From NCBI GenBank assembly GCA_900320095.1, contig ONQZ01000004.1, positions 4,227 through 68,226 on the forward strand: a DNA stretch of 64,000 nucleotides, written 5' to 3'. Shown piece by piece: positions 50 through 62,033 of this stretch; positions within the stretch are counted from its first letter, which is position 1, and each line of letters starts with the position of its first letter. Both the position numbers and the translations under genes were made by a program. Under the pieces are notes generated by a model. It was not told where the DNA came from. It searched no databases and saw nothing but the letters and a program-made list of their open reading frames with translations. The stretch is from an uncultured Lentisphaerota bacterium (GTDB taxonomy: Bacteria; Verrucomicrobiota; Lentisphaeria; Victivallales; UBA1829).

Positions 50-382
50 TTACAGTCCCGACACCTCGGCCTCGTCGCTGCGTTCCGCCTTCACGGCGAA
101 CCGCTGGTATTTTCCTTTTTCCGCGGTCAGAACCGCCGACGTGATGAGAAATGTCTTTTCCTGATACGTCAGCGTCTCCCCGGCCTCCGGGACGTTGCCG
201 CCCTCCACGAGGCCGTCGAATTCAAGCTCCGTGCGGCGGCTGGTCGCGGCGAGCTTGTCCTTCCTGCCGTCCTCCCCGTGTACCGACACGGTCCCGGTCA
301 GCGTCGAACGCACGCGGATGTTCCGCATGGCGATGTCGAAACCGCCTCCGTCCCACCCGGAAATCAACCCCGTTGCGCGCAT
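50..382 (-). CDS. Phage neck/head-tail protein candidate (unknown family)
   Basis: 110-aa ORF starting 1 nt after the stop of the gp36-like gene, in the same operon-like array as the capsid genes. No motif recognised. Confidence 0.5.
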   Translation of the reverse strand: MRATGLISGWDGGGFDIAMRNIRVRSTLTGTVSVHGEDGRKDKLAATSRRTELEFDGLVEGGNVPEAGETLTYQEKTFLITSAVLTAEKGKYQRFAVKAERSDEAEVSGL

Positions 383-383
383 C

Positions 384-803
384 TCAGTAGCCCCTCATGG
401 TTTCACGGGAGAAAACCGGCTCGTCGCAGGCGACCGTGGCAAATCCCTGGCCGCGCACGGATTCCGCCGCACCGGGCAGGACCAGTTCGCCGGACGCGGT
501 CTTCTCCAGCGATCCGCGCACATGGGCGACACGCATTTTGAGTTTGTCGGGCAGCGAATCGCCCGCACAGCGCACCCGGGCGCGCTCCTCGCACAGGGTC
601 AGATTCCAGTCGCGGAGCAGCGCTTCGGCGCGTTCGGATGCGACCGGCGTTTCGTAGCGGCATCCGGCGGACGCGTCGATTTCCGCGGCGGCCGCGTCCA
701 GGTCGGCCTGCGCCGCACCCGTGCCGGCCTCGTCGTTTCCGTACAGGCCCGCGTAATCCTGGCCGAGGCGCACTTTCAGTTCATTGATCGTGGCGTATGC
801 CAT
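384..803 (-). CDS. Mu gp36-like head-tail connector protein (DUF1320 type)
   Basis: 139 aa. The N-terminus MAYATINELKVRLG... and its size and position right after the major capsid gene are typical of DUF1320/Mu gp36 proteins. Confidence 0.65.
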   Translation of the reverse strand: MAYATINELKVRLGQDYAGLYGNDEAGTGAAQADLDAAAAEIDASAGCRYETPVASERAEALLRDWNLTLCEERARVRCAGDSLPDKLKMRVAHVRGSLEKTASGELVLPGAAESVRGQGFATVACDEPVFSRETMRGY

Positions 804-1031: not shown

Positions 1032-1940
1032 TCAGCCTGCGGCGGTGCCGCCGCGTCCCAGCAGATGCGGGAAGAGCGCAGCCGCGTTGCCGTAAGCCTC
1101 GGCGCCGAAGAGGATTCTGCCGTCCATGAAGACGTTTTCGTCGTTCGGCTGGTTCAGGATCGTGAGCGAGGCTTCCTTGTTCTTCAGGACCAGGATCGGC
1201 TTCAGGACACCGGTGAAACGGCCCAGGAACCAGTAGTTGGCGTTCGTGCCGGTGAGGCGCGGGCTGACGACCAGTTTGACCTTGTCCTTATGCGGGTTGG
1301 CGAATTCCTGGTCGTTGGAGTCGCGGTACGTGTCGGAGTACAGGATCTCGCGGGCGGTGTCCTCCAGCGCGGGGCCGACGATCAGGTGCGTCGGACGCGT
1401 GTTGACGGGCTGGCCGTTGTGGCCGCGGAACGAGTACATCTGGGTGAAGAACGAGCCGAAGTTGGCGAACGTCAGGGCGTTGGTCGTGACGTTGTTGATC
1501 GTGCTCGGGCCGTACTTGCGGGAGCTGTTGTAGAAGCTGGCGCCGTCGATCCAGTTCGGCGGATTCACGAGCGCCTCGGTGAAGAGCGTATCCCACAGCT
1601 GTTCGCCCGCCTCGCCCATGGCGGCGACGAGCGTGCCGTAAATGCCCCAGTTGTCGCTTTCGACGTCGCGCACCGGGATCGCCACGGTGTCCTCCCAGGG
1701 ACGTTCCACGAGGCGAATCTTGTGCGTGGAGAGGTTCTTGATCTGGCGCGGGCCGAGCCATTCGCGCATCCCGGCGAAGGCGTCGAGGAACGGGATTTCC
1801 ATGGCTGTGTGCTTCGGATCGCCCTCGATGTCGGCGAGGTCGCGGTAGATCGTCTCCGCGCCTTCCACCGCCTGTTTGAACTTCAGATTGAAGCTGGTGC
1901 GCATCGCGGACAGCGTTTCATGATTGAGTTCCATATTCAT
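1032..1940 (-). CDS. Mu gpT-like major capsid protein
   Basis: 302 aa. Length and sequence pattern (MNMELNHETLSAMRTSFNLKFKQA..., C-terminal ...FGAEAYGNAA...) resemble the Mu-like prophage major head subunit. It sits after the protease/scaffold and decoration genes. Confidence 0.85.
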   Translation of the reverse strand: MNMELNHETLSAMRTSFNLKFKQAVEGAETIYRDLADIEGDPKHTAMEIPFLDAFAGMREWLGPRQIKNLSTHKIRLVERPWEDTVAIPVRDVESDNWGIYGTLVAAMGEAGEQLWDTLFTEALVNPPNWIDGASFYNSSRKYGPSTINNVTTNALTFANFGSFFTQMYSFRGHNGQPVNTRPTHLIVGPALEDTAREILYSDTYRDSNDQEFANPHKDKVKLVVSPRLTGTNANYWFLGRFTGVLKPILVLKNKEASLTILNQPNDENVFMDGRILFGAEAYGNAAALFPHLLGRGGTAAG

Positions 1941-1988: not shown

Positions 1989-2399
1989 TCAGAGCGGGCC
2001 GTTGCCGATTTCCGCCACCACGCCGTCCGCGAGCACGTCGCGCACGACGCCGGCGACCACCGCCGCCGTGCCGCCCGTCAGCGTGACGGTCTGGTCGTCC
2101 TTCACGTAGCAGGTCTTGTTCAGGTCGCTCAGCGCAAACGCGCCGCTGCTGACCGGGGCATAGAGGAACATGCCGGAACGGGTCTTGACGGTCTCGCCGC
2201 CGGACGCCGTGTTTTCGGCGCGGCCGACCACGGTGATGGCACCAGCGGACGTGGCGGGGATCGCTTTTCCGCTGGAGTTGATCGCGGTGATGCCACCCGC
2301 GTAGACGGTGCTGCCCGAGGCGACGGTGAATTCACGCGTGTAGTGAACGCCGCCGGCCGCGATTTCACGGGTGTCTCTGGATTCTGTGAGTGCTGACAT
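1989..2399 (-). CDS. DUF2190-like head decoration/cement protein
   Basis: 136-aa Gly/Ala/Thr-rich small protein between the scaffold/protease and the capsid gene, the usual position of DUF2190-type proteins. Confidence 0.6.
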   Translation of the reverse strand: MSALTESRDTREIAAGGVHYTREFTVASGSTVYAGGITAINSSGKAIPATSAGAITVVGRAENTASGGETVKTRSGMFLYAPVSSGAFALSDLNKTCYVKDDQTVTLTGGTAAVVAGVVRDVLADGVVAEIGNGPL

Positions 2400-2447: not shown

Positions 2448-3518
2448 TCAGCCGTGCATGGCGCGCTGGTATTCGTCTTTGTCAAATCCGAATTTCCGGA
2501 TCATTTCCTCGTCCGCCGCGCTCAGGCTCCGCTTCGGCGCGCGCCGTTTGTCCGGCGCGAACGCCATGCGGCCCGGCACCACGGCGGGCGCGTGCTCCAG
2601 GTAGGACGCCAGCACGGCGCAGTCCTGGGTCCTCGCCCAGTCTTCCAGCGCGTGCGTCAGCTTCCCCTCCTGAAGCCCCTGTTCGATCAGCTCCGCCTTG
2701 CGTTTTTCCTCGGCGGCGCAGACCATCGTGTCGAGCTCCTGCCGCAGGGCGGCCGCCTGCCCGGCGCGTTCCTTCACGGCATCCAGCGCCGCGGACATCG
2801 CATCGTCGGGTTCGCCGTCCGCGATGCCGAGTCCTTCGCGCATGGCGGCGATCGTGTCCGCTTTCGCCTCGATCGCGGCCGCCGTACGCTCGATCGCGCC
2901 TTCTTCGTCGTCCTCGCCGGACAGCACGATCTCGTTCCACGCCGTCTTCCCGAGCAGACGCCCGAGGGCGCGTTCGATCGGGTCCTGAAGGCGTTTCAGT
3001 TCGATGGCGTTCCGTCCGATGTCCTCCGGGTCGGCGTCGTCTCCCTCGCCGCCCGCCGCCAGGACGTCCTCGCAGTTCAGCGCGGGCTCGTTTTCCATCG
3101 CCACGCTCGTGATGCGGATCGGGCCTTCCTTCAGGCCGCGGATCACCGGCGAACAGTACCGGAAAATCTTCTCCTTCAGGAGCTCGTACGCGCCCGGCGT
3201 CCATTCCGCCCGGATGCGAAGCTCGTCGCCCTCGCGGAACAGCGTCCCGAATCCCATCGCGGCAACGCCCGACGGGATCAGCCGCAGCGCTTCGCTTTCC
3301 TCCACGCCGTGCTTTTCCGCCAGAATGTGGAGGTAATGGTTGGAGTCGATCGGGATCGCCTCGCCTTTCTTCGCCTGGTACGCCGCGATAGCGTCCAGGT
3401 CCTCCACGCTCAATCGCAGTTCATAGTCCTTTCCGTTTTTCACGAGCCGGTTCACGCCCGCATGCAGCAGAGTCCATTCCTCCGGGACTCCGTTCGCGTC
3501 CTGTTTTACAGTGCTCAT
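2448..3518 (-). CDS. Mu gpI-like prohead protease/scaffold protein
   Basis: 356 aa. N-terminal region as in the Mu I protease family (..WTLLHAGVN...IPIDSNHY..). C-terminal half is Ala/Glu/Arg-rich and coiled-coil-like, as for a scaffold. Confidence 0.75.
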   Translation of the reverse strand: MSTVKQDANGVPEEWTLLHAGVNRLVKNGKDYELRLSVEDLDAIAAYQAKKGEAIPIDSNHYLHILAEKHGVEESEALRLIPSGVAAMGFGTLFREGDELRIRAEWTPGAYELLKEKIFRYCSPVIRGLKEGPIRITSVAMENEPALNCEDVLAAGGEGDDADPEDIGRNAIELKRLQDPIERALGRLLGKTAWNEIVLSGEDDEEGAIERTAAAIEAKADTIAAMREGLGIADGEPDDAMSAALDAVKERAGQAAALRQELDTMVCAAEEKRKAELIEQGLQEGKLTHALEDWARTQDCAVLASYLEHAPAVVPGRMAFAPDKRRAPKRSLSAADEEMIRKFGFDKDEYQRAMHG

Positions 3519-3577
3519 TTCCTGCTCCTATGTTTGTTTTGTCTTGTCCCCAATGGGGTAGTAAAAATCCGTTTTCC

Positions 3578-3712
3578 GTGCCGTAGCGGAGCACGGCACA
3601 ACTGTAGTGGAGGACTTGTCCTCCGTGCCGTAGCGGAGCACGGCACTACTCGACACACTCTGTGTGTGCCCGAGCGGAGCCGGGCACAACTGTAGTGGAG
3701 GACTTGTCCTCC
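3578..3712 (+). repeat. Double-hairpin (REP/BIME-like) repeat array, locus 1
   Basis: GTGCCGTAGCGGAGCACGGCAC at 3578-3599 and 3625-3646, and GTGCCCGAGCGGAGCCGGGCAC at 3666-3687. Each of two units is followed by linker aactgtagt and palindrome GGAGGACTTGTCCTCC (3609-3624, 3697-3712). Extra ACACAC-TCT-GTGTGT hairpin at 3653-3667. Confidence 0.9.
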
Positions 3713-5100
3713 TACCAGCCGAAAATTCGGTCTTCCATGCGCCGCTGATGAGGCGGCGGCAGAGGATCGACTCCGCACGGCGCCTCGTTCCCCCTGCCTG
3801 CCGCATGGACCGCCAGCGCGAGCGCCCAGAACCGGTCCGAATGTCCGGATTCGTCGCGTTCGGCGTCGTAGCGCACGTTTCCGGCGGCGGTCACGCTCCG
3901 CACGATCTTGTGCAGGTCGTGCCGCAGCACGTCGTCGGCGACGATCCGGATGCCGCGCGATTCGAACGCCGCCCGGACCGGCATGGCAAGCGCGGCCTTC
4001 ACAGGCCCCGTAAACGTCACGCTCTCCACGCGGTATTTCCCGTGGCGTTCCTGCATCTCCTCCGCCAGCATCATCCCGATCCCGGTCGCGTCGATGCAGA
4101 GGCGTTCCAGCCGGGCGTCGTCGAGGCGGCGCGCCAGGGCGTCGGCCTGCATGCGGAACGGCATGTTTTCCATGACTTCGTATCCGCTCTGCCACAGGAT
4201 GTCCCCGATGCGCGTCAGCTCGAAATACACCCCGACGTCCCTCTTCCGCCCCACGTCGTATCCGGCGTACCGGATCGCCTTCGGATGTTCGCTCAACGCT
4301 TTCTCAAGATCGCCCGCGTCGTTTTCGCACGCGCCGATCATGCCGTAGTCCAGCAGCGACGCGCCCGCCTCCGCCGCTTCGATCAGATACTGCGTCCGCC
4401 AGGCGTCTTCCGTGCGGCATTTCGCACGCATCGTCTTCAGCCACTCTTCGCGGCTCAATTCGCTCCCGGTTACGGCGTTGACGCGTTCCACAAATCCCTC
4501 TTCCACGGCATCCAATATGCTCGTTTTGTGGACGCTCCATCCCATCGCGTTCGCACCGTGTTCCGCCTCGTGAAGCATCCGGCAGAACGGCGATTCGCCG
4601 CTTCCGTCCACGCTCAGCGCGGACACCATTTCCAGCTGGCCGCCCCATGTGGTGCAGGGCATCGCCATGTCGATCACGCGTCCGCTGTCCTTGTGCAGGT
4701 CCGCCTCGTCGATCAGGATGTCCCCGCCCTTCCCGGCGAACGCCTCGGGCGTGCTGGACAGGCTGATGACGCGGCTGCCGTTGCCGTATTCCGCCGTGTA
4801 GGCGCGGATCCCGTGCAGGGGGTCGATGACCACGGCATCCTCCCCGGCGAGTCCGCGGCAGACCGCGTTGGCCGCCGCCGCCCATTTCGCGATGTAGTCC
4901 GTGATGAACTCGCGGGCGGTGAATTCGTCGCGGCTGGTCACCCACTGCACCGTCCCCGGCCGCCGCAGGCACTTGTCGTTCACGCGGAAGCTCGTGGCGT
5001 ACGTGATGCCGATCCGGCGCGATTTCGCGTACAGCTTCATTCGCGCGTCGTCCAGGATCCACCGTTTCTGGTACGGCAGAAAGTATTCCGACAGCTTCAT
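3712..5100 (-). CDS. Phage terminase large subunit
   Basis: 462 aa. ATPase part has a Walker-B-like DILIDEADLH. C-terminal RNaseH-like nuclease part has GYDVGRKRD, IDATGIG and HSDRFWALALA. Located at the head of the capsid module. Confidence 0.85.
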   Translation of the reverse strand: MKLSEYFLPYQKRWILDDARMKLYAKSRRIGITYATSFRVNDKCLRRPGTVQWVTSRDEFTAREFITDYIAKWAAAANAVCRGLAGEDAVVIDPLHGIRAYTAEYGNGSRVISLSSTPEAFAGKGGDILIDEADLHKDSGRVIDMAMPCTTWGGQLEMVSALSVDGSGESPFCRMLHEAEHGANAMGWSVHKTSILDAVEEGFVERVNAVTGSELSREEWLKTMRAKCRTEDAWRTQYLIEAAEAGASLLDYGMIGACENDAGDLEKALSEHPKAIRYAGYDVGRKRDVGVYFELTRIGDILWQSGYEVMENMPFRMQADALARRLDDARLERLCIDATGIGMMLAEEMQERHGKYRVESVTFTGPVKAALAMPVRAAFESRGIRIVADDVLRHDLHKIVRSVTAAGNVRYDAERDESGHSDRFWALALAVHAAGRGNEAPCGVDPLPPPHQRRMEDRIFGW

Positions 5101-5146: not shown

Positions 5147-5374
5147 TCAGAGTCCGTGCGGACGCCGGGGAGTTATCCCACCTTCATTTCCGCGCGGTTT
5201 CGCATCTTTCTTATCCCTTTTTCGAGACTTTCTTCCGGATCTTCCCTGCCGCGGGAAATCATGCTTCCGATCCCGGCGGCGCCGCACGGACTCTTCAACA
5301 GAGGGTCGTTTTGCGCACTTTCGGACGAAACAAACATGCAAACATCTGCTGTTTCTATCGGTTAAATGTGACAT
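5147..5374 (-). CDS. Small highly basic protein (possible DNA-binding/small-terminase-like partner)
   Basis: 75-aa ORF with a GGAGGA Shine-Dalgarno 8 nt upstream of the ATG and an Arg/Lys-rich C-terminus, directly upstream of TerL. No family recognised. Confidence 0.35.
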   Translation of the reverse strand: MSHLTDRNSRCLHVCFVRKCAKRPSVEESVRRRRDRKHDFPRQGRSGRKSRKRDKKDAKPRGNEGGITPRRPHGL

Positions 5375-5505: not shown

Positions 5506-6462
5506 ATGTGGAAAGCTCTCAGACAGCCTGCCAAAATCATCATCCCGCTCTTCATCGGACTCTGTTTCCCCTGGATGTCACGCGCATCCTTCATGGTCCG
5601 CTGGCTGCTCGTCGTCATGCTCTTGAACGCCTGTCTCGGCATCAAGTTCAGCGGCTTGAAAGTGCGTCTGTACCACTGGTATCTGCTCGCCGCCAACCTC
5701 GCGATCGGCGTGCTGGCGTGGCTTCTTGCCTGCTGGGTCTGCGGCGGCAATACCGAGGTCGCGAAAGCCGTCTTCTTCACAGCGATCTCCCCCACCGCCA
5801 CCGCCGCGCCCGTCGTGATCGCGTTCCTGGGCGGAAACGTCGCCACTGTCCTGATGGGCTTCCTGATCAGCGACCTCGGCATCTCGCTCTTCCTGATCGG
5901 ACTGCTCCCGCTCGTCACGGGCCAGCTGAGATGGGAGTTCGTCAACGAGGTCTTCCTGAACATCGCGTTCGTGATGGCGCTCCCCGTCTTCCTCTCGCGC
6001 GTCCTGCTCCATTTCTGGCCGTGGCTCGCCGACTTCGCAAAGTTCAAGATCGCGCCGCACGCCCTCTGGGCCTGGTCGATCATGCTCCTCATCCTCGGCG
6101 GCATGGCGCGCAAGACGTTTGACGAGCAGGAGGTCAGCGCCCTCACCATTCTCCTCCAGATCGGCTGCGCCACGCTCGCCGTCTGCGTCCTGAACTTCTT
6201 CACCGGGTGGCTGCTCGGACCGCGCCGCTGCAAGCTCGAATCCAGCCAGCTCCTCGGACAGAAAAATACCTCTTTCACGATCTATCTGGCGATCACGTTC
6301 GCCTCGCCCGTCGCCGCCCTCGGTCCGCTGTTCTACATCCTCTGGCACAACAGCTGGAACGCCATTCAGATGTTCCAGTTCGAGAAGCGCAGACAGCGCA
6401 AGGCGGCGCGCTTCATCTCTTCCTCGCACCCGGAAGCCGGGGCGGAACACATCACTTCCTGA
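5506..6462 (+). CDS. Polytopic membrane transporter, BASS (bile acid:Na+ symporter)-like
   Basis: 318 aa with about 9-10 hydrophobic segments. The motif [20 protein letters not shown] resembles the P-x-A-x-x-x-V...G-[DN]-VA signature of SBF/BASS-fold carriers. The first ~610 codons of track ORF 3664..6462 are read-through antisense. Confidence 0.6.
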
Positions 6463-6485: not shown

Positions 6486-9359
<2,874 letters not shown>

Positions 9360-16173: not shown

Positions 16174-18411
16174 ATGTCAAAGATTATCATCGACAGCGAT
16201 AAGAACAATCAAACCATCAGCAGCGGCGTTTCCGCCTATGTGTGGAGCGGCGCGACGCTCAAAAACTCCTATGTCTCTTCCGGCGGCCGGCTCTACATCG
16301 AGAACGGGGCCGCCAGCGCCACCACCGTTTCAAAAGGCGGGTTCATGATCTTCAGCATGGGCTGTTCCGGCGGGACCAATTCGGTCCTTTCCGGCGGCAC
16401 CATGGCAATTATGTCGGGTGCGAACGTCGCCTACGTCACCGCGGCGAAGGGCGCGGCCATCATTCTGGAGGCCACTGCCAGCTCGTACTACACGCCTGCG
16501 ACCAAATTCACCGTCTCCTCCAACGGGGCCACCATCAAATGCACCGGCAGCACGTTCTCCGGCTGGGACAACATGAACACGCCCGGTTGCGCCCTGACCC
16601 TAGCTGGCGTTTCCGCATCCAGCATCAATGTCTCCAGCGGCTGCGTCCTGACCATCGGCGGCGTCAGCCGCTATGCCTCGGCCTCCGTCAACAAGGTGAA
16701 CGTCTACAACGGCGGCAAGGTCTACTTCACGCGCGTCGATACCGTCGGCACGGCTACGGCCCATGCCGGCGGTTCGCTCTTCGTCGCAGACGGCGCCACA
16801 GGGTCCGCCACCATCATCGAAAACGGCGGCAATGTGACGCTGTATTACGGGGACGAAATGCTGAACGATCCGGGCTGGGGTATTTCCATCAAGAAAAACA
16901 CGTTCTACAACGTCGTCGCCAGCGGCTACGATGTTCAGGATGTCGCCGCCCACTCCGGCACCACCGGCGTCAACACCACCCTGCTGGACAGCGCCTATTT
17001 CCGCGTCTACAGCGGTGGCAAGGCGTACGACACAGTCACCTCCGGCGGCACGCTGGACATTCGCTCCGGGGGCGTCGCCAGCAATGTCTACAACAATACC
17101 GGTCTGGTATGGGTTTCCAGCGGCGGCAAGATCACAGGCAAGATATCCATCAATCACCGTATCATCGTCGAAGACGGAGGCATTATCGACTTCGACATTT
17201 CCGGCATTCGCGGAGGTGATGCCGCCAGGTTCGACAACTACTACAACCTCCCGACCAACACAGGTTCCCCCACGCTCACGCTGACCGTCTCCGGACGCCA
17301 GCCCGACGGCACCTACACCCTCGCCACCGGCGCATATCAGATCGAAAAGAAGACGACCGACGCGGAGAAGACCCTGACCGTCTACAACACCTCCGGCTCG
17401 AAACTCGGCGCCGTCAAGCTCGGTCAGACCGTGAAGATCGGATCCGCCAGCTATTCCCTGAATCTCAACTCCGGATACCTCTCCGTCACCATCAGCGGCA
17501 GCGCGCCCGCCAAGGTCGTGAAATCCGACATCGACGCCAACAACAAGAGCGACATCCTCTTCCAGTACACCGGCGGCAACTATCAGACCGGATTCTGGAT
17601 GAACGGCTCCAACACCTGGAAAGGACAGGGCGTCCTGCACAGCAAGGACTGGACTCTGCTCGGCGCGCACGATATGAACGGCGACGGCAAGGCGGACACC
17701 GTCTACGTCGGAAATGTCACCGTCAACGGCGTGAAGGGCGCGTACATCGGCTATTACAACGCGGGCATCGACACCGACGCCAACTGGAAGAACATCGGCT
17801 ACCTGAACAACTCGGGCAACGTCGCCTGGAACAACGTCGTCGGCAATCTGACCGGATCCTACTGCAAAAACGACATCGTCTGGCATGCGCCTTCCCTCGG
17901 CGCGCTCGGCGTCTGGACCGACGGCACCGCCAACTGGACGAGTCTCGGCTCCGGATTCGATTCCCAGTGGAAGATCGTCGGCACCGGCGACTTCAACGGC
18001 AACGGTCAGGAATCCGTCCTCATGGCTCACGCGGGCGGCAACAACTACTACGCCGTGGACCTCTACGGCAACATCACCCACATGGGCGCATCCACTGGAG
18101 GCTGGGAAGTCGTCGCCATCGGCGATTTCTACGGCGACGGAAAGGACGACGTCATCGCCTTCAACAAGACCTACGGGCTCGTCGACGTCTGGAGCGACGG
18201 CAAGACCAACGTCGACGTCAACATCGGACAGGTCAACGCGAAAGACTGGTTCATCGCCGGAGCCGGCGATTACAACGGCGACGGAAAAGACGATCTCCTG
18301 GTCCGCCAGAAATCCACGGGCATGCTCGGCTACTACGCCGGCGCGAACATGAAGTCCGGCTGGCAGACGCTCGGCTACGGCGTCAGCAACGCCTGGACCG
18401 TCATCGCATAG
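16174..18411 (+). CDS. Leaderless repeat protein: beta-helix repeats + FG-GAP/VCBS beta-propeller (paralog 2)
   Basis: 745 aa with the same architecture as 13865..15937. Shared middle motif (..DFDIS...TLTVSG...Y.L.L..G.LSV) and shared C-terminus (LLVRQ.STGMLGYY...GYGV...WTVIA). Confidence 0.8.
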   Translation: MSKIIIDSDKNNQTISSGVSAYVWSGATLKNSYVSSGGRLYIENGAASATTVSKGGFMIFSMGCSGGTNSVLSGGTMAIMSGANVAYVTAAKGAAIILEATASSYYTPATKFTVSSNGATIKCTGSTFSGWDNMNTPGCALTLAGVSASSINVSSGCVLTIGGVSRYASASVNKVNVYNGGKVYFTRVDTVGTATAHAGGSLFVADGATGSATIIENGGNVTLYYGDEMLNDPGWGISIKKNTFYNVVASGYDVQDVAAHSGTTGVNTTLLDSAYFRVYSGGKAYDTVTSGGTLDIRSGGVASNVYNNTGLVWVSSGGKITGKISINHRIIVEDGGIIDFDISGIRGGDAARFDNYYNLPTNTGSPTLTLTVSGRQPDGTYTLATGAYQIEKKTTDAEKTLTVYNTSGSKLGAVKLGQTVKIGSASYSLNLNSGYLSVTISGSAPAKVVKSDIDANNKSDILFQYTGGNYQTGFWMNGSNTWKGQGVLHSKDWTLLGAHDMNGDGKADTVYVGNVTVNGVKGAYIGYYNAGIDTDANWKNIGYLNNSGNVAWNNVVGNLTGSYCKNDIVWHAPSLGALGVWTDGTANWTSLGSGFDSQWKIVGTGDFNGNGQESVLMAHAGGNNYYAVDLYGNITHMGASTGGWEVVAIGDFYGDGKDDVIAFNKTYGLVDVWSDGKTNVDVNIGQVNAKDWFIAGAGDYNGDGKDDLLVRQKSTGMLGYYAGANMKSGWQTLGYGVSNAWTVIA

Positions 18412-18421
18412 CACATTCCCC

Positions 18422-18581
18422 GTGCCGTCGCGTAGCACGGCACTACCGCCGTCCAGGGCTTGCCCTGGCAAGCGAAGCTGAGAGCACTACTTCAGTGGAA
18501 GACTTGCCCTCCGTGCCCGAGCGGAGCCGGGCACTACTGCAGTCCAGGGCTTGCCCTGGTGCCCCGGCGACGCTCGGGCAC
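18422..18581 (+). repeat. Double-hairpin (REP/BIME-like) repeat array, locus 2
   Basis: Hairpin-1 copies at 18422-18443, 18513-18534 and 18559-18581. 16-nt palindromes CCAGGGCTTGCCCTGG at 18453-18468 and 18544-18559, and GGAAGACTTGCCCTCC at 18497-18512. 9-nt linkers taccgccgt, tacttcagt, tactgcagt. Confidence 0.9.
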
Positions 18582-18600
18582 GAAAGATGTATCGTCTTTT

Positions 18601-26611: not shown

Positions 26612-26656
26612 GTGCCCGGGCGCGCCCGGGCACTGCCGGTAGGGGGCTATGCCTCC
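26612..26656 (+). repeat. Double-hairpin (REP/BIME-like) unit, locus 3
   Basis: GTGCCCGGGCGCGCCCGGGCAC (26612-26633), linker tgccggtag, imperfect palindrome GGGGGCTATGCCTCC (26643-26656). It ends exactly at the stop-codon complement (tca 26657-26659) of the lipoprotein gene. Confidence 0.8.
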
Positions 26657-39098: not shown

Positions 39099-41393
39099 TC
39101 ACTGAGGCGGAGTTTCCGCTTTCTCCGCGGATGTGTCCGGGGTCTCCGTCATCAAATGCCCGTAGTGTTCCTGAACGTACTGATTGACCGGGCTGTAGGG
39201 AAACGCGTCTTTCGAGATCCACTTCACGCTCGCCGGGATGTCGATCTCGCGGATGTGGCAGCCCCGGAACGCCTCTTTCCCGATGCGCTCCAGGCCGTCC
39301 GGCAGGATGACTTTCCGCACGTTCCAGCAACCGCGGAAGGCGCCCGCCCCGATCTCCTTCACGCCCGCCGGGATCGTGATCACCGGTATGGAACAGATTT
39401 CGAACATCCTGTCGACGACCCGTTCCATATTGTCCGGGAGCACGAGCTCCTTGGCGCGGCAGGCGCTGAACGCGCCGTCCTCGAAATGCGTTACCGTGTC
39501 CGGCACGACGATACGGTCGAAGGTACACCCGGCGAACGCATTGGACGCGATTGTGCGGATATTCTCCGGCACCGTGAAAACCCCCGCCGTGTCCCTCGGC
39601 GCTTCGAGCAGGCGTCCCGTGACGGAATTGAACAGCGTGCCGTCGTCCAGCCGCTTGAACCTGCTGTCCGGCGGGAAGACCATATTTTCCCAGTGCATCC
39701 CGATCCCGTCCAAATCCTCAATGTCCCCGTGAAAAACGAGTTTGTGTTCCTTCGGTCCGTACGCATACCACCAGCCGAACGCGTTTCTTCCGATGCGCTT
39801 CACGCTCGCCGGCAGTTCGATATGGGACAGGCTCGTTGCGAAAAACGCATTGTCCCCGATAGATTCGACGCCGTCCGGGAACTCCACGCTCCGCAGCAGA
39901 TGGCATTCAGAAAAGGCTTTTTGTCCGATCGTCTTCGCGCCCGCCGGGATACGAATACTCTTCAGAGTCTTACAGCCGGAAAACATGCCGTCCGAAATCG
40001 AATTCATCCCGTCCGCAAGCTCGCACTTCGTCAGGGAGACGCAGTTCCTGAAAATATCCGGTTCAATCCGGGAAGGCGCACCGGCGATTTCCACCTCGGT
40101 CAGACGTACGTCCTCAGCAAACGCGTTGGATCCGATAAAATTTACGCCCGCCGGGATCCGGATCTTCTCCAGGGACCGGCAGTGCTCGAACGCGCCGTCG
40201 CCGATGGCTTCCAGCGATTCCGGGAGCGTGATCCGGCTCAGGGAAACGCATCTCTCAAACGCGCCCGCCCCGATCCGCATAACGTCCGGGAGCTCGACAT
40301 CCCTCAGAAAACTGCATCTGCCGAATCCCCAGACGGACGGAGACGGATTGCCGCTGCGGCCCTGCTTGTGCGTGCGGACGCGGAGCAGACTGAGGCATCC
40401 GTCGAACCCCTCCAGCGAGGCGTCCCGCGCCACTACGACCTCCTCCAGCCGTATGCAGTTTTTGAACGAGACCGACTGGATCCCGACCGGGATCGAGGCA
40501 TATTTCAGCGTGGAACTGCCGGGAAATTCGAATTTGGCGGCATAAGGATTCAAATCGTGTTCGAGAAGGAGTTTTCGAAGGGTTTCATCCACGGCGGGGA
40601 CACTCTCCGGGATCGGACCGAAGGTATCAATGGATCTCAGGGCGGAACACCCCGCGAAAGCACTGCCGTCGCACCGGCGGAGCGTATGCGGCAGCGCGAT
40701 CATCTTCAGCGAGGTGCAGTCCTGAAACGCATGATAACCGAGTCCGGCAAGATTGGCGGGCATGCGGACGTCCGACAACGCCGTGCACCCGTGGAACGCA
40801 TGCTTTCCGATCACCAGCACATTGTCCGGGATCCTGATGCGTTTCAGGCTCGTGCACCCGGCAAAAGCCCCCTCGCCGATGGAAACCAGCGTAGAAGGCA
40901 GCGTAACGCGTTTCAGCTGCGTACATTTCCAAAACGCTTTCGCGCCGATGTGCGCGACGCCTTCCGGCACCTCGAATTCGACCGTGTCCTCCGGGACCAC
41001 CCATAGTGTCCTGCTGGGAGGATCGCCGGAATCAAGATACTCCGGGGAAGGATACGGCATGTGGTGCGGACCCGCCAGATAATCGTCCGGGAAGGGCCAA
41101 GCCGTCGTTTTCGGGCGCCGGTCATGGATGAGGTAGAACGGGAATGAGGAGAAAATCTCTTCGTACCTCAAATCCTGGTATCGTTCGAGGTCTTCCGGAA
41201 AAAGCCGGAAACTGAAGCGGGCGCGAACCGGAACGAACGGTACGCCGAGATTGCAGATGATGCGCCACGGCAGCAGGTAAAGTATCACGGAGCCGATGAA
41301 CATGGCCAGGAACAGGAAGGACATGCACGAAATGCGGCGCAATTTGGACCGGTGCAGAGAACGCGGCTCGTCGGATGTATGATCTTGAGGCAT
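39099..41393 (-). CDS. Large BspA-type leucine-rich-repeat protein with N-terminal membrane anchor
   Basis: 764 aa. TM segment ISCMSFLFLAMFIGSVILYLL, then more than 15 LRR_5-like repeats (P..V..IG..AF..C..L..I.IP). Confidence 0.85.
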   Translation of the reverse strand: MPQDHTSDEPRSLHRSKLRRISCMSFLFLAMFIGSVILYLLPWRIICNLGVPFVPVRARFSFRLFPEDLERYQDLRYEEIFSSFPFYLIHDRRPKTTAWPFPDDYLAGPHHMPYPSPEYLDSGDPPSRTLWVVPEDTVEFEVPEGVAHIGAKAFWKCTQLKRVTLPSTLVSIGEGAFAGCTSLKRIRIPDNVLVIGKHAFHGCTALSDVRMPANLAGLGYHAFQDCTSLKMIALPHTLRRCDGSAFAGCSALRSIDTFGPIPESVPAVDETLRKLLLEHDLNPYAAKFEFPGSSTLKYASIPVGIQSVSFKNCIRLEEVVVARDASLEGFDGCLSLLRVRTHKQGRSGNPSPSVWGFGRCSFLRDVELPDVMRIGAGAFERCVSLSRITLPESLEAIGDGAFEHCRSLEKIRIPAGVNFIGSNAFAEDVRLTEVEIAGAPSRIEPDIFRNCVSLTKCELADGMNSISDGMFSGCKTLKSIRIPAGAKTIGQKAFSECHLLRSVEFPDGVESIGDNAFFATSLSHIELPASVKRIGRNAFGWWYAYGPKEHKLVFHGDIEDLDGIGMHWENMVFPPDSRFKRLDDGTLFNSVTGRLLEAPRDTAGVFTVPENIRTIASNAFAGCTFDRIVVPDTVTHFEDGAFSACRAKELVLPDNMERVVDRMFEICSIPVITIPAGVKEIGAGAFRGCWNVRKVILPDGLERIGKEAFRGCHIREIDIPASVKWISKDAFPYSPVNQYVQEHYGHLMTETPDTSAEKAETPPQ

Positions 41394-41469
41394 GAAAACT
41401 CCTCACACGTTCGAATGAAAAGGCTTTTCGATAGTATTCCATAAATATACACCCTGTAACCGCTTTTTC

Positions 41470-41830
41470 AAGAAAAAAAGAGAAAACAGGCAGATTGTGA
41501 TTTATTGTTCATAGATAAGTTTTAATAGATATGATAAATATAAAATTAAAAGTGAAATAAGAGAAAAAAATATTGAAATAAGATTTTATATTAAAAACAA
41601 AACTGAAAATAGATAATACTGTTTTCAATGATAAGACAGAGCGATTAAATCGCTTTATATTTATTTCGAAATTGAGATAGAATGATAATATGCTGATTAT
41701 TTAAATAAGATAAGAATATATAAAAAAAGAAATGACAAAATGAATGAATAAACTGATTTTCAAGGAATAGCGGGAATATCCGTTGATTCTGACAGATAAT
41801 TTGTCAAGTATTTGATAATCAATATAAAAG
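41470..41830. other. Extremely AT-rich non-coding island with co-oriented WGATAAK motifs
   Basis: About 360 bp of roughly 20-25% GC (by eye) in a ~60% GC context. No ORF of 60 aa or more. Eight plus-strand GATAA cores at 41513, 41532, 41611, 41629, 41683, 41708, 41794 and 41813; no TTATC seen. Confidence 0.9.
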
Positions 41831-41864
41831 AAATGACGGACAAACCGTCTGATTCGTCCGTCAT
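41824..41864 (-). terminator. Rho-independent terminator of thiI
   Basis: ATGACGGAC (41833-41841) pairs with GTCCGTCAT (41856-41864). On the minus strand the stem is followed by TTTCTTTT. Confidence 0.7.
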
Positions 41865-41883
41865 ATCGTCATTTCACTGATTT

Positions 41884-43140
41884 TCAATCATTTATATCGT
41901 GTGACGGAATGTCGGTCAAACCGTCATCCGTCACCAGCTTGATCTCATCAAAAGCCTTCTGTATCGCCGCGTCCATGTCGGGTATCTTCGATTCCTCGAA
42001 CTCCACAAAATGAAGCTTGGCATGAATGACAGGAGAAGGCGGTGCAAAGACCGTGCAGCTGTCCGCCATAGGTTCGATGGAAATGTCAAATGTTCCAATG
42101 TCTTCCGCACGGGCGATCGTCTCCAGTTTATCCATGCCGCAGAGTGGACGCACGATCAGATCCGGCACGGCACGGTCGATCACGGACATGTTCACGACCG
42201 TCTGGCTGGCGACCTGACCGATCGCCTCGCCGGTCACGATCCCGTACAGATTATGCTTTCTGCAGAGTTTCGAGGCGATGCGCATCATCATGCGCCGGTA
42301 CAGGACGGTGCGGAATTTCGGATCGCAGTTGTCGCGGATGAGTTTCTGAACCTCGGAAAGATTGCAGGCATACAGCACGCCGTGCGGCTGGAACCTGTTG
42401 ATGATCTTCGCGATACGCCAGACTTTCGTGACGGATTCGATCGGCGTATATGGATAACTGTGGAACGTAAGAAAGTCCATCCGGCAGCCGCGTTTCATCG
42501 CCATCGCGCACGCCACCGGCGAATCGATCCCGCCGGAAAGCATGCCGAGCAGCGGAGAATTGGAGCCGACCGGAAGGCCGCCGCGCGCCTTGACCGTTTC
42601 GAGGAAGATCGTGGAATTCTTTTCGCGTATCTCGACGCCGATGGAAATATCCGGATTCATCAGGTCGACCTGGATCTTATCCTCCCCGAACATTTCTTCG
42701 ATCATGGAAGCTGTTTCGATTTCGATCTCTTTGGAACGCAACGGAAAACTCTTGTCGGAACGCCGTGCGCGCGTCCGGAATTTCACTGGACGACCGAGAG
42801 TCTCAAGTTTCTGTTCGAACAACGGTTTCACGGCATTCTTAATATGATCCAGAACGGCTTCGATGGTGCGTTCCCCCTCGATACAGAAAGAAAACGAATC
42901 CAGGCCGAAACAGTCTCTCAGGCGTTCTTTCAGATACTCCTGTTCCTCGTCCGTGAAAACCTCAAATTCGTTTTTATGTATGAAAATACGGCCGCGCATT
43001 TTCACATAATTCAGACCCGGAACACGGTCTTTCGTCATGCGTTTCATATTGCGGATCAGCGCATTTTCAAACATGCTGCGATTGTTTCCTTTTGTCGCGA
43101 TCTCGTTGTAACGGCAGATGATGGAATTGTAGGATGCCAT
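41884..43140 (-). CDS. thiI: tRNA 4-thiouridine(8) synthase ThiI (THUMP + PP-loop, no rhodanese domain)
   Basis: 418 aa. PP-loop LSGGIDSPVA. N-terminal ferredoxin-like/THUMP region. Confidence 0.92.
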   Translation of the reverse strand: MASYNSIICRYNEIATKGNNRSMFENALIRNMKRMTKDRVPGLNYVKMRGRIFIHKNEFEVFTDEEQEYLKERLRDCFGLDSFSFCIEGERTIEAVLDHIKNAVKPLFEQKLETLGRPVKFRTRARRSDKSFPLRSKEIEIETASMIEEMFGEDKIQVDLMNPDISIGVEIREKNSTIFLETVKARGGLPVGSNSPLLGMLSGGIDSPVACAMAMKRGCRMDFLTFHSYPYTPIESVTKVWRIAKIINRFQPHGVLYACNLSEVQKLIRDNCDPKFRTVLYRRMMMRIASKLCRKHNLYGIVTGEAIGQVASQTVVNMSVIDRAVPDLIVRPLCGMDKLETIARAEDIGTFDISIEPMADSCTVFAPPSPVIHAKLHFVEFEESKIPDMDAAIQKAFDEIKLVTDDGLTDIPSHDIND

Positions 43141-43159
43141 ATTGTTTCTCCTGTCTTGC

Positions 43160-44230
43160 TTAAACAGCGCGTCCGGCTGTAATATGTACGATTTGTGAAT
43201 ATTGCGTCAGAGGATTATCGGGTATTTCCGTAAAGGAACAGAATACCTGTTTTGCTTCCGATATCTTATGATAAAATGCTTCCTGCGTCTTTTTGTCAAG
43301 ATCGCCGGTGGCATCATCCACGATAACGACTGTATTATCCTTTGACATCGAATGATTTTTGACGATATCGAATTCCGCTTCCTTCAGCGCGAACGATGTC
43401 GCGCGGCACTGTCCGCGGGAACCGTACAATTTCAAGGATTTTCCATCTGCGACAAAATCGAAATCGTCAAGATGCGGTCCGGTTGTCATGTATCCGTTCA
43501 GTCTGTCTTTTTCCAGATTCCGTTCGAGTTTTTCCTCAAAGATTTTCGGATCGGAAAGCTCATGAACCGTCTTCAATTTCAACTGCAGATCGGCGAGTTC
43601 CGGCTTCAGTTCCGCCATGATGTTCCGCATGAAATCCGATAAGATTCTGAGGTGGATTTCACGCGCCTGGACGATCTCCGCGCCGTATTTTGCGAGCGCC
43701 GGATGATACGACCGGATCACATCGTTGTTCGTATCCTTCATCCGAAGCAGACAATTTCTGTTTTTGACCCCGTTATAATACGCCTGCAGCGCGGTAAAAT
43801 ATCCATGGTCCAGCATGGAAATGAACATATCGAGAAATTTTCTTCTTACCTGGGACCGCCCGGTGATGATTTCCGGATCGTCCGGCAGAAACGTGACCGT
43901 ATTGAACGAACCGGCGAACTCGCTGGCACGCGGGACATGTTTTCCGTCCACGACCAGTTTCCGTGTCTCGCCGAGCTCGACCGCGAGCTGGCGCGACCAG
44001 TCCCGGAATGAAACGGAAGCTCCGACGATCGCGGACGGCGCATGAATTTTTATCATTTCCGAGGTGCGCGAAGTACGGAACGACCTCAGATTCGCGAGAT
44101 AAAACAACGCTTCCAGCAGACTGGTCTTTCCCTGGCCGTTCGATCCGCAGAGAAACACCGTCGGTGCCTCAAAACGCAGGGACACCGATTCGAACAACCG
44201 GAAATTCTGCAGAACCAGCGAATTTACCAT
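43160..44230 (-). CDS. recF: DNA replication and repair protein RecF
   Basis: Walker A GSNGQGKTSLLEA, then FYLANLRSFRT. Canonical position downstream of dnaN. Confidence 0.9.
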   Translation of the reverse strand: MVNSLVLQNFRLFESVSLRFEAPTVFLCGSNGQGKTSLLEALFYLANLRSFRTSRTSEMIKIHAPSAIVGASVSFRDWSRQLAVELGETRKLVVDGKHVPRASEFAGSFNTVTFLPDDPEIITGRSQVRRKFLDMFISMLDHGYFTALQAYYNGVKNRNCLLRMKDTNNDVIRSYHPALAKYGAEIVQAREIHLRILSDFMRNIMAELKPELADLQLKLKTVHELSDPKIFEEKLERNLEKDRLNGYMTTGPHLDDFDFVADGKSLKLYGSRGQCRATSFALKEAEFDIVKNHSMSKDNTVVIVDDATGDLDKKTQEAFYHKISEAKQVFCSFTEIPDNPLTQYSQIVHITAGRAV

Positions 44231-44386
44231 GGAGAAGTCCCCGCGAAAAGATTACTGAAAATGAAGTGATTGAATACGGAAGTCCCGCCGCATGCACGGT
44301 TTGAGCTTACGGCAGGACTTTCAGCACATTGTTTCAGCACGATCACTTTCTCCGACCGTACTGTTGCGCTGCATGACTTGCTGTTC

Positions 44387-45484
44387 TTATTTGTTCCTCA
44401 TCGGCATGATGACATACAGGAAGCCGTCGCCGCTTTCGATCGCGATCGGGCTCATGACGTCGTTCACCTTGATGAACACGTTGTCGACCTGGATGTGCTT
44501 GAAGGGATCCAGGAAGAAGTTCGAGTTGAACGAAGCGGACATCTCCTCGCCGTCGTACTGGATGGGCACGCTTTCGCGGCCTTCGCCGATGTTGCTGTTC
44601 GTTTCGAAGAGCATGCTGTCCGATTTGAACGTGAGGGAGACTTTCGGCGAACCGCTTTCCGCGAGGGTCACACAGATGAGTTCGAGCGCATAGATCACGC
44701 TTTCGCAGGAGACTGTCACGGTCTGCTTGAAGGAAGCCGGAATGACCTGGCGGTAGTTCGGGTAGTTGCCTTCGATGAGCTTGGAGGTGATCACGGATGC
44801 GCCGACCTCGAACACGACCTGGTTTTCGGCGATGTTGATCGCGACTTCGCCTTCCTTTTCGAGGAGGCGCTTGAGCTCGTTCGCGGCCTTTTGGGTGATG
44901 ATGATATCGCCCTCGGAACCTTCGGGAAGCTCTTCGAAGACTTTTTCGCAAAGGGCAAGGCGTTTGCCGTCGGTGGCGACCGCGGTGAATTTGCCGTCGC
45001 GGACGGAGAACAGGATGCCCTGCAGGACCTTGCGGGAATCTTCGAGGCTGGCGGCGTATGCGATGCGTTCGATGATAACCGCCATGTCCGCCTGCTTCAT
45101 GGAGAAGGAACGGATGAATTTGACCTCGTCCTTCTTCGGATAATCGGCGGGATTGAGGCCGAGGAGCATGATGGACGCGGTGCCGCACTTGATCGTGGAG
45201 TGGAAGTTGTCGCCGCTTTCGATCTCGATGAAGTCGCCGCGGAACTTGGAAACGAGGGTGAGCATCTTCTTGGCGGGAAGTGTGGTCTCGCCGGCCTCGA
45301 TGACCTCGGCGTCGACGACCGTTTCCATGCGGATCTCAAGGTCGGTGCCGGTGAGTTTGAGCTTGCCGTCGGCCGCCTCGAACAGGATATTGGAAAGCAC
45401 GGGGAGGGTATTGCGCGTATTGATGATATTGCCGACCTTCTGCAGCGCCTTGAGCATGGTCTCTCTGGAAATCTTGATTTTCAT
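44387..45484 (-). CDS. dnaN: DNA polymerase III beta sliding clamp
   Basis: 365 aa. Starts MKIKISRETMLKALQKV. Three-domain clamp length, with recF downstream. Confidence 0.95.
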   Translation of the reverse strand: MKIKISRETMLKALQKVGNIINTRNTLPVLSNILFEAADGKLKLTGTDLEIRMETVVDAEVIEAGETTLPAKKMLTLVSKFRGDFIEIESGDNFHSTIKCGTASIMLLGLNPADYPKKDEVKFIRSFSMKQADMAVIIERIAYAASLEDSRKVLQGILFSVRDGKFTAVATDGKRLALCEKVFEELPEGSEGDIIITQKAANELKRLLEKEGEVAINIAENQVVFEVGASVITSKLIEGNYPNYRQVIPASFKQTVTVSCESVIYALELICVTLAESGSPKVSLTFKSDSMLFETNSNIGEGRESVPIQYDGEEMSASFNSNFFLDPFKHIQVDNVFIKVNDVMSPIAIESGDGFLYVIMPMRNK

Positions 45485-45740
45485 GGTGGGTTGCCTCCGA
45501 TCTTCCGGCGGACTTTTCTGTGCCGCCCGGAAAAGTTATTGAGATTGGTTTCTGATATGATTTTAACCTGAATTGAGCAAATGTAATAGGAATAGGGGCT
45601 GTCAATATGTCAACAACCCTTCGTTCCCGCTTCAAACACTTTTTTCGGAAGATGTTCACAAAATGGTTTGACTTTGTTCGGAAACGGTGTTCTATTAACA
45701 CTGTGGATTTTTATTTAACCCCTGTTGGCAGGTGACGAAC

Positions 45741-46397
45741 ATGGATATGAACAACAATGTCAAGAAGCACATGGATACTCTTCTGGCCCGGTATCCCGAT
45801 CTCCGGGACACGGCGGAAAAAATCCATACATTATATTTTAACCTGGAAAACGTTTTTTTCAAGGACAAAACGCTATTTATCTGCGGAAATGGCGGAAGTT
45901 GTTCAGACGCAGAACATTTTATTGCCGAGCTTGGAAAAGGATTCCTGAGCCGCCGGCATATCCCGTCCGAACTCGGCGAAGCTCTGGAAGCCGCCTATCC
46001 CGGCGAAAACTATCCGGAACGGCTTCAGAGAGGGTTCCGCGCCATTTCCCTGAACGGTCATCCGGCGCTTGCGTCGGCGTACACCAATGATGTCGATCCT
46101 CTCATGACTTACGCCCAGCAGCTGTATATCTTCGGTAAGAAGGGCGATGCCGTGCTCGGGATCACGACTTCCGGCAACGCGAAAAATATTTTGAATCTCT
46201 TCAAAGTGGCGCGTGTGCTCGGAATTTCCACCTATCTCCTGACCGGGAACAACGAGGAAGGCGTGTGCAGAAAATACGCCGATTTTATTTTGGATGTCCC
46301 GGCGCGTGAAGCATACCGCGTGCAGGAATACCATCTGCCCATCTACCACGCTTTGGCGATGATGCTGGAGGAAAGGTTCTATGGCGCAGGCGAATGA
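45741..46397 (+). CDS. SIS-domain protein, phosphoheptose isomerase GmhA/DiaA-like
   Basis: FICGNGGSCSDAEHFIAEL and ..ITTSGNAKN.. are typical of GmhA/DiaA. An alternative GTG start lies at 45732. Confidence 0.8.
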   Translation: MDMNNNVKKHMDTLLARYPDLRDTAEKIHTLYFNLENVFFKDKTLFICGNGGSCSDAEHFIAELGKGFLSRRHIPSELGEALEAAYPGENYPERLQRGFRAISLNGHPALASAYTNDVDPLMTYAQQLYIFGKKGDAVLGITTSGNAKNILNLFKVARVLGISTYLLTGNNEEGVCRKYADFILDVPAREAYRVQEYHLPIYHALAMMLEERFYGAGE

Positions 46398-47091
46398 ACT
46401 CAAGCATGTAGCCGTTATTCTGGACGGCAACGGACGCTGGGCGGCGCAGCACGGAGTTGAACGCAAGGAAGGCCACCTGGCGGGCGCGAACCGTGTGGTA
46501 GATTTCATGAACTATATCTCGCGCTACGAGTCCATCCGCTATGTCACGCTGTACGCGTTCAGCACGGAAAACTGGAAGCGCTCGAAAGAGGAAGTCGACG
46601 CGCTGATGAATATTCTGGCGCAGTTTCTCGACGACAACCTCGAAGTCCTGCTGAATGAAAAGGTCCGCCTGCTTACGGCGGGCGACATTTCCGCACTGCC
46701 GGAACCGTGCCGTGTCCGTCTTGACAAGGTCAAACGCGAAACTGCGAAAGATTTTACGCGCACATTCATCCTCGCGCTCAACTACGGTTCGCGCATGGAG
46801 ATCACGGATGCCGTGAAAGCGATTGCGAATGAAGTGAAAAATGGTACGCTTTCACCTGAAGACATCACGGAAAAGACGGTGGCGGATCATCTGTATCTCC
46901 CCGAAGTGCCGGATCCCGACCTGCTGATCCGAACCAGCGGCGAGGAGCGCGTGAGCAATTTCCTGCTGTGGCAGATATCCTACAGCGAGTTTTATTTTAC
47001 GAAGACCTTATGGCCGGATTTCGACATCAACGAGTTCGACAAGGCGGTCCAGGCTTATTACGGCCGGAAACGCAGATTCGGAGGCAGATAA
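46381..47091 (+). CDS. uppS: Undecaprenyl diphosphate synthase
   Basis: HVAVILDGNGRWA and RTSGEERVSNFLLWQISYSEFYF. Confidence 0.93.
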   Translation: MAQANELKHVAVILDGNGRWAAQHGVERKEGHLAGANRVVDFMNYISRYESIRYVTLYAFSTENWKRSKEEVDALMNILAQFLDDNLEVLLNEKVRLLTAGDISALPEPCRVRLDKVKRETAKDFTRTFILALNYGSRMEITDAVKAIANEVKNGTLSPEDITEKTVADHLYLPEVPDPDLLIRTSGEERVSNFLLWQISYSEFYFTKTLWPDFDINEFDKAVQAYYGRKRRFGGR

Positions 47092-61966: not shown

Positions 61967-62033
61967 TTTCCGCGCTGATTTCCGTGTTTTTCCGTGTTTT
62001 CAGCGTTTTTTTCTCTTTTTTTCAGTTTCCACC

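Follow-up and report, generated by a model that had tools for sequence, protein, structure and literature searches.

The first genes of the 64,000-nucleotide stretch analysed here (contig ONQZ01000004.1, from an uncultured Lentisphaerota bacterium; hereafter the window) form a cluster related to the head genes of phage Mu, in which the large terminase gene (TerL) and the gene for a gpI-type protease are separated by only a short gap filled largely with host repeats. I propose that this cluster (locus A) is part of a domesticated, Mu-derived particle system whose portal is encoded at another site of the host chromosome (locus B), and that the system is probably similar to a gene transfer agent (GTA). 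I give this reading, in which the function is deduced from gene content, a probability of roughly 60%. Comparison between species indicates that the gap is an old, conserved junction in a domesticated Mu-like gene set, and not a fresh deletion scar.

A conserved junction without a portal gene

The left end of the window is transcribed leftwards, on the minus strand (Table 1). Measured against a Mu-type head module, it contains TerL, gpI and gpT, but neither a portal gene after TerL nor gpF (the MuF family). Homologues of its TerL, with 56–65% identity, sit in intact Mu-like prophages (L013, L019 and L049/L050). The gene order in L013 is TerS-like, TerL, Portal_Mu (560 amino acids, aa), gpI, a 208-aa gene, gpT and gp36, with MuF further downstream, and this prophage also possesses a Mu transposase and Gam. 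L019 and L049/L050 show the order TerS-like, TerL, Portal_Mu (592 aa), a 183-aa gene, MuF, gpI, a 137-aa gene, gpT, gp36, a 139-aa gene and a gene resembling that of the window's 110-aa protein. Compared to this closest intact type, the window's gap lacks ∼3.9 kb, encompassing the portal, the 183-aa gene and MuF. Portal, MuF and TerS proteins of three intact relatives, used as tblastn queries, gave no match in the whole window; no gene of the element matches a portal family in Pfam or PHROG, and no portal match was obtained in any of at least 30 copies of locus A. An orphan MuF locus was considered as well and set aside, as a metagenome scan returned MuF solely inside intact phages of the L019 type.

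Species representatives of GTDB were scanned with an alignment of the capsid protein, which located locus A in 14 metagenome-assembled genomes (MAGs) of rumen Victivallales/Lentisphaeria. TerL directly precedes gpI in all 14, none has a match to portal, MuF or TerS, and at least 11 share the synteny uvrA, membrane protein, element, desulfoferrodoxin (dfx), flavodiiron protein (FDP). The adjacency is also found where TerL is 69% identical to that of the window (L017/L018), in another host context following a GH127 gene and with TerL first after the host DNA, and where the identity is 64% (L034).

The repeats in the gap, which resemble the repetitive extragenic palindromic (REP) elements of other bacteria, are distributed differently. 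In L010, whose TerL is 96.5% identical to that of the window, the gap measures 89 nucleotides (nt) and is free of repeats, as is the 101-nt gap of L015/L016, also found at the uvrA locus and with a TerL identity of 86%. In ten species, the gap has a core of ∼71–95 nt, containing a GC-rich imperfect hairpin and an invariant ribosome-binding site (RBS), AGGAGCAGGAAATG. The hairpin of the repeat-free relatives, CCCGGCGGA...TCCGCxGGG, is longer than the one in the window; as a named structure it is 81% paired, but its covariation does not exceed that of controls, and it was not picked by RNAalifold. Gaps with repeats consist of the core and one to three units placed right behind the TerL stop, namely one in L023 and L032, two in L029 and L035, and three in the window. 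The repeat is thus absent from 10 of the 15 orthologous gaps, and its copy number ranges from 0 to 3. Since repeat-free orthologous gaps exist and the copy number varies, the junction is older than the repeats. When the species are sorted by TerL identity, those with and without repeats interleave, indicating that the portal was already missing from the junction when the repeats colonised it, in a recent and labile process that was probably neutral.

The stop codons differ between the two kinds of gap. All TerL genes followed by repeats end with TAG (TGG TAG GAGGAC...), and the repeat-free orthologues with TAA or TGA. As TAG is confined to the repeat-bearing genes, and the repeat starts in or beside the stop, this suggests insertion at the TA beside the stop codon.

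An earlier note on this DNA had described the 193-bp gap with its three copies of hairpin-1, two palindromes and an ACACAC/GTGTGT hairpin, and had pointed out that a portal and gpF would be expected there; the coordinates and motifs are as it gave them, and the intact relatives do carry the portal at this position. The note further held that the expected genes had been replaced by host-type repeats, and proposed a deletion junction. The repeats are indeed dispersed in the host, but they replaced nothing, since gaps of 71–95 nt in relatives are repeat-free. Nor is the junction a fresh one, since TerL and the protease are adjacent in at least 14 species, a possibility which the note itself had named as bearing against it.

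The portal gene lies at a second locus

With the portal of the L019 phage as query, two kinds of proteins were retrieved, full-length phage portals and a large, tight group of 406–412-aa Portal_Mu proteins. The latter are 55–57% identical to the first ∼400 residues of the query, and are surrounded by host chromosome in every context examined. This second locus is organised as rnhB, a gene for a secreted 617–658-aa protein, a 208-aa gene (B208), the portal, a 139–155-aa gene (B139) with a 4-nt overlap at the portal stop, a lipoprotein gene on the opposite strand, ftsW and murG, with uvrB further along.

The short portal spans positions 5–336 of the 336 positions of the Pfam family Portal_Mu (E = 4.5e-69). 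An AlphaFold2 (AF2) model of it, with a predicted local distance difference test score (pLDDT) of 77, matches the portals from JBD30 (E = 1e-22) and Mu virions along ∼398 alignment columns (369–383 residues modelled in the virion structures). Compared to the phage portals, the protein is short of nothing but their C-terminal extension. B208 is homologous to the gene directly upstream of TerL in the intact phages (E = 2e-19), and is therefore referred to as putatively TerS-like, a name given by position only. B139 shows weak similarity (E ∼1e-4) to the phage gene just past gp36, a neck-gene homologue. The secreted 617–658-aa protein (L040 7159–9135, L037 7283–9136) is Pro/Gly-rich, with coiled-coil regions and no match to a known family; it precedes the TerS-like gene in the main lineage, is absent from the divergent MAG (L039), and is probably not part of the locus B module.

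Both loci are found in the MAG RGIG3616, where locus B lies on JAFSZN010000162 (L040) and locus A on contigs 140 and 157 (L035/L036), with a TerL 97.4% identical to that of the window and a two-unit repeat array. They are also found in the MAG SRP141132_co3_47, with locus B on CAZAAM010000014 (L039) and a divergent locus A on contig 26 (L034). In each of these MAGs the two loci sit on different contigs. Adjacent protein accession numbers suggest that a third MAG carries both. The earlier note had allowed that a portal or gpF homologue might be encoded in a non-canonical place; a complete Portal_Mu is encoded in this way, at a second locus of the same genomes, and gpF was found at neither locus A nor locus B.

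Both loci are under selection

Pairwise dN/dS ratios were calculated with the Nei-Gojobori method, using L009 and L015 for locus A (proteins without a name are labeled p, followed by their length in amino acids). The ratios are 0.12 for TerL, 0.18 for gpI, 0.13 for p136, 0.055 for gpT, 0.12 for gp36, 0.14 for p260 and 0.17 for p190, with dS values of 0.4–1.1 (0.4–0.7 except for p190), against 0.49 for the host uvrA and 0.65 for the neighbouring membrane protein. At locus B, dN/dS is 0.09–0.20 and dS is 0.36–0.54, against 0.52 for ftsW and 0.48 for murG. Intact open reading frames (ORFs), dN/dS of 0.05–0.2 and host-like dS together indicate that locus A is not decaying. The earlier note had offered a decaying or a domesticated prophage; these values speak for the latter and against the former. 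Both loci are vertically inherited and under purifying selection.

The catalytic residues of TerL are likewise maintained. The Walker A-like motif K26-S-R-R-x-G31 and the Walker B residues D131-E132 are invariant between the element and the intact phages, as are the nuclease residues D282, D337, H420 and D422.

A proposed two-locus particle system

When the intact head module is compared to the two loci, these are complementary subsets of it. Locus A keeps TerL, gpI, the 136-aa protein, gpT, gp36 and the 110-aa protein, and locus B keeps the TerS-like gene, the portal and the 139-aa gene, while the 183-aa gene and MuF are the only members of the head module missing from both. Given the conservation of TerL, the portal and the TerS-like gene, the most economical reading is that the system still packages DNA. 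As its genes are divided between two separate loci, one particle would probably not hold the complete set, which would make the system GTA-like. Two traits of GTAs are present, namely structural genes flanked by host DNA and not accompanied by replication, integration or lysogeny genes, and vertical inheritance with purifying selection.

In such a system, the host would co-express loci A and B, and the portal, supplied in trans from locus B, would nucleate procapsids built of gpT and gpI. The TerS-like protein and TerL would then package DNA by a headful mechanism, and adaptor, neck, tail and fibre proteins would complete the particle, to be released by the cell. The two loci may go back to two copies of one prophage, spread by replicative transposition, each of which lost what the other kept; alternatively, a rearrangement with multiple breakpoints may have produced them.

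Mu, JBD30/D3112 and the Lentisphaeria prophages share with the two loci homologous TerL, gpI, gpT, gp36 and Portal_Mu proteins (identities of 58–65% for TerL, 57% for the portal and 42% for gpT). The intact phages, however, possess a transposase, Gam and a single TerS-TerL-portal-(183)-MuF block, whereas the element has neither the early genes nor MuF. Their portals are 544–592 aa long, with a C-terminal extension of ∼180 aa that the element's portal lacks, and they carry one head module, in contrast to head genes split over two host loci.

Few independent GTA lineages are known, and the well-studied ones are nearly all alphaproteobacterial and HK97-like. In the literature, I found no report of GTAs or of prophage domestication in Victivallales or Lentisphaerae. 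It is possible, and I put this forward more tentatively, that the system is an undescribed GTA of rumen Victivallales, independently domesticated from a Mu-like phage and with its head genes reciprocally partitioned over two loci; it would then be the first GTA lineage in the Planctomycetes-Verrucomicrobia-Chlamydiae (PVC) superphylum, and the first with a portal in trans.

A multilocus "genome" has been described for RcGTA of Rhodobacter capsulatus (PMC5026251). Like the system proposed here, RcGTA has a head-tail cluster of phage origin that lacks genes for replication and lysogeny, is inherited vertically and is kept by purifying selection, and its essential particle genes occupy more than one chromosomal locus, so that its own gene set is not transmissible by the particle. 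Unlike it, RcGTA is HK97-like and has TerS, TerL and portal side by side in its main cluster, with just fibres, spikes, lysis genes and regulators elsewhere; here, the ancestor was a Mu-like transposable phage, the host belongs to Lentisphaerota (PVC), and it is the portal and TerS-like genes themselves that are in trans. The function of RcGTA has been demonstrated, while the present system is known from genes.

A second parallel is FpGTA I of Faecalibacterium prausnitzii, a 10.5-kb operon of ten ORFs (PMC12946183, 2026). This is also a compact operon of a gut bacterium, encoding TerS, TerL, portal, scaffold, capsid and short-tail-like proteins, with more structural proteins encoded outside the operon and no replication genes. 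However, it belongs to another lineage and another host phylum, its portal is encoded within the operon, and its DNA-filled particles have been shown by proteomics and capsid-DNA sequencing.

Several observations weigh against a two-locus, GTA-like system. The two loci were seen together directly in only two MAGs. MuF (PF04233) and the 183-aa gene were found at neither locus A nor locus B, in searches that did not span whole genomes. Searches of the genes of locus A against Pfam, PHROG and PDB sequences revealed neither a tail tube nor a tape-measure gene, and the tail-side genes match no family; an AF2 model of one of their products, p260, made from a shallow alignment, reached a pLDDT of only 43. 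The upstream regions of the two loci have no regulatory motif in common, sharing no k-mer of 9 nt or more. Lastly, the gpI homologue of L034 (8796–9341, in the MAG SRP141132_co3_47) measures only 181 aa, consisting of the C-terminal scaffold part without the protease domain, a reduction that could reflect erosion in that lineage.

If the proposal is correct, the picture of GTAs would be widened by a Mu-derived system that selection maintains throughout a clade of abundant rumen bacteria, and which would offer a natural case of an essential virion gene, the portal, acting from a separate locus. The system would also be a candidate for capsid-mediated mobilisation of host DNA in the rumen. For the annotation of prophage-like clusters, the case shows that the absence of a hallmark gene can signal a split domesticated system and not decay, and that repeats of the host may have reached such a junction only afterwards.

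Alternative explanations

The repeat array might have a function of its own. It consists of three in-register units of 47 nt, each designed as a 22-nt hairpin (hairpin-1) and a 16-nt palindrome. Hairpin-1 is present twice as GTGCCGTAGCGGAGCACGGCAC and once as GTGCCCGAGCGGAGCCGGGCAC, this third copy showing a compensatory stem change, from GTGCCGT..ACGGCAC to GTGCCCG..CGGGCAC. In shuffled sequences, 0.00 chance matches are expected for hairpin-1 and 0.03 for the palindrome. On its transcribed strand, the RNA of the gap folds strongly (z = -4.06), and a consensus scan of this strand found neither a sigma-70-like promoter nor an intrinsic terminator. In all five species that possess it, the array is placed right after the TerL stop, where 3′ hairpins could protect the TerL mRNA or attenuate read-through, and thereby set the ratio of TerL to capsid. 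The REP elements of E. coli have an established role in differential operon expression. Nonetheless, I consider such a function unlikely, though it deserves attention: most orthologous gaps lack the array, including that of the nearly identical L010, the copy number is labile, there is no T-run of a terminator, and the repeat family inserts elsewhere, even within ORFs, as expected of a selfish repeat. In the reading that I prefer, the array is a recent, dispensable and species-variable insertion of a host-dispersed hairpin repeat behind the TerL stop, and its largest effect would be to modulate the stability or decay of the TerL-protease transcript.

It is also conceivable that the two loci are kept because they interact with the related intact Mu-like phages of their hosts, either parasitising them in the manner of chromosomal satellites, for functions such as MuF, further tail parts, lysis and regulation, or poisoning their head assembly as a defence. 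Potential helpers or targets are at hand, since intact Mu-like prophages with TerL and portal 65% and 57% identical to those of the element reside in Lentisphaeria MAGs, even with the host hairpin repeat, and a dependence on them would fit the missing MuF and the missing recognisable tube and tape-measure genes. I nevertheless regard a helper-dependent or anti-phage element as improbable, because integrase, excision, replication and pac-type functions are all lacking and inheritance is vertical and strictly syntenic. A complete set of head genes, accompanied by an adaptor and by a rapidly changing fibre that is likewise under selection, is better suited to autonomous particle formation than to interference, and no defence-type genes were seen, PADLOC not having been run.

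The novel tail-side genes and a hypervariable fibre, reminiscent of tailocins, could further be taken to indicate a particle that contains no DNA, either bacteriocin-like, for protein delivery or a nanocompartment, with TerL kept for another role. This fits the data poorly: tailocins have no capsid genes, the ATPase and nuclease motifs of TerL are invariant under the low dN/dS reported above, and a TerS-like gene and a portal are conserved as well, a trio that is needed solely for DNA packaging.

A decaying prophage remnant, left by a recent deletion of portal and gpF, with a scar since occupied by host repeats and with its other genes on the way to becoming pseudogenes, would account for the missing genes, the repeats in the gap and the absence of any lysogeny or replication genes, but is scarcely credible for a junction shared by at least 14 species, even at TerL identities of 64–69%, with repeat-free orthologous gaps, intact and constrained ORFs with host-like dS, and a portal kept under selection at a second locus.

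Composition of locus A

Host sequence lies directly to the right of TerL (Table 1), and the element thus begins with TerL. Nothing similar to TerS, a transposase, Gam or a repressor was found ahead of it. The small, very basic ORF in this interval is an uncertain case; it may be a genuine gene, may be left over from a TerS gene or may mark a regulatory region.

Table 1. Features of the window, with positions counted from its first nucleotide.
Feature	Position	Strand	Remarks
110-aa protein	50–382	-	weak homologue in intact phages, two genes past gp36
Mu gp36-like head-tail adaptor	384–803	-	borderline Pfam score, 24.3 bits against a cut-off of 24.7
Major capsid protein, Mu gpT type	1032–1934	-	PF10124, 7.6e-40; 96–99% identical across 13 species
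Virion structural protein	1989–2399	-	136 aa; phrog_1731; between protease and capsid in intact relatives too
Mu gpI-type head protease/scaffold	2448–3518	-	356 aa; PF10123, 8.2e-26; phrog_328
TerL-protease intergenic gap	3519–3711	-	193 bp; carries the REP-like array
Conserved 3′ part of the gap	3520–3558	-	short hairpin CCCCATTGGGG (3548–3558), A/C-rich spacer, RBS AGGAGCAGGAA ahead of the protease ATG
REP-like unit 1	3578–3624		hairpin-1 (3578–3599), AACTGTAGT, palindrome GGAGGACTTGTCCTCC (3609–3624)
REP-like unit 2	3625–3671		hairpin-1 (3625–3646), then ACACAC..GTGTGT hairpin (∼3654–3668) in place of the palindrome
REP-like unit 3	3666–3712		hairpin-1 variant (3666–3687), palindrome GGAGGACTTGTCCTCC (3697–3712); abuts/overlaps the TAG stop of TerL
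TerL	3712–5100	-	462 aa; Terminase_6C, 5.9e-12; PHROG TerL families to 1e-29; first gene of locus A
Small, very basic ORF upstream of TerL	5176–5337	-	54 aa (75 aa from an upstream ATG); 54–81% conserved, far below its neighbours
Host membrane protein	5506–6462	+	right of the element
uvrA	6486–9359	+	followed by MBL-fold (metallo-beta-lactamase) protein, Ser/Thr kinase and rsmB (host)
Repeat cluster	18422–18581		within 18380–18600, between convergent host genes; three hairpin-1 copies and palindromes
Further repeat copy	26612–26633		same family as the gap array
Single repeat unit	56259–56305		inside host membrane-protein ORF 55334–57466 (+); read through as RAVAKQGTASVEDLSS

The sequence to the left of the window was read from rumen-metagenome contigs that encode the identical TerL protein, of which there are 15. 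The element continues there for another ∼6.3 kb, with genes of 48, 260, 190, 368, 745, 135, 129, 76 and 125 aa, and its far border is formed by host genes for desulfoferrodoxin, FDP and rubredoxin. Locus A thus measures ∼11.4 kb in total, with host genes on both sides, and contains no transposase, integrase, repressor or replication gene. About ten of its genes, those past the gp36-like adaptor, are lineage-specific, and the last of them include those of a membrane protein and a lipoprotein.

None of the nine proteins encoded left of the window (48–745 aa) belongs to a Pfam or PHROG family, and comparison to PDB sequences, by profile searches for p260, p368 and p190 and a single-sequence search for p745, returned nothing meaningful. 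For p260, 19 close homologues were found, as well as three relatives with 33% identity, encoded behind the capsid gene of phages that have no other annotation, on IMG/VR contigs of low GC content. This supports a role of p260 as a virion or tail protein, and nothing more specific. A portal hidden among these genes was also considered, and rejected, as there is no Pfam or PHROG match, the size of p260 is below that of a portal, and p368 and p745 diverge rapidly.

The 745-aa, fibre-like gene (L009 13009–15246) is hypervariable, with 48–60% identity against 85–99% for its neighbours, and three shorter genes take its place in L016. Receptor-binding proteins under diversifying selection typically show such variability.

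The repeat family in the host

The hairpin repeat is dispersed in the host, with copies at four places in the window and more in other host loci. It has the hallmarks of REP elements, being an imperfect palindrome that forms a hairpin, with compensatory changes, in dispersed copies whose presence varies among strains. The copies at 3.6 kb and 18.4 kb are intergenic, and those at 56259–56305 and in a phage gpI gene are within ORFs. Since units are read through inside long ORFs, the family does not appear to be strictly extragenic. The phage copy (L050 7956–7977) belongs to an intact Mu-like phage of the L019 type, in which it occupies the linker of gpI and is translated as EVPCFATARA; from their carrying the host's repeat, it follows that the L019-type phages share the host clade. 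The palindromes of the cluster at 18380–18600 are one GGAAGACTTGCCCTCC and two CCAGGGCTTGCCCTGG, so that at least three palindrome types occur together, in a manner reminiscent of bacterial interspersed mosaic elements (BIMEs).

The family resembles the REP elements and BIMEs of Enterobacteria and Pseudomonas in its short, GC-rich imperfect palindromes with many dispersed copies, its frequent clusters after stop codons or between convergent genes, its differing presence among strains and its compensatory stem changes. It differs from them in that there is no sequence relation, the unit is a composite of a 22-nt hairpin and a 16-nt palindrome, and some copies are within ORFs and phage genes.

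Elsewhere in the window, the G+C content falls to ∼0.50–0.53 at 40000–47000 and 62000–64000, compared to 0.60–0.65 in the remainder, and these two stretches may be horizontally acquired segments.

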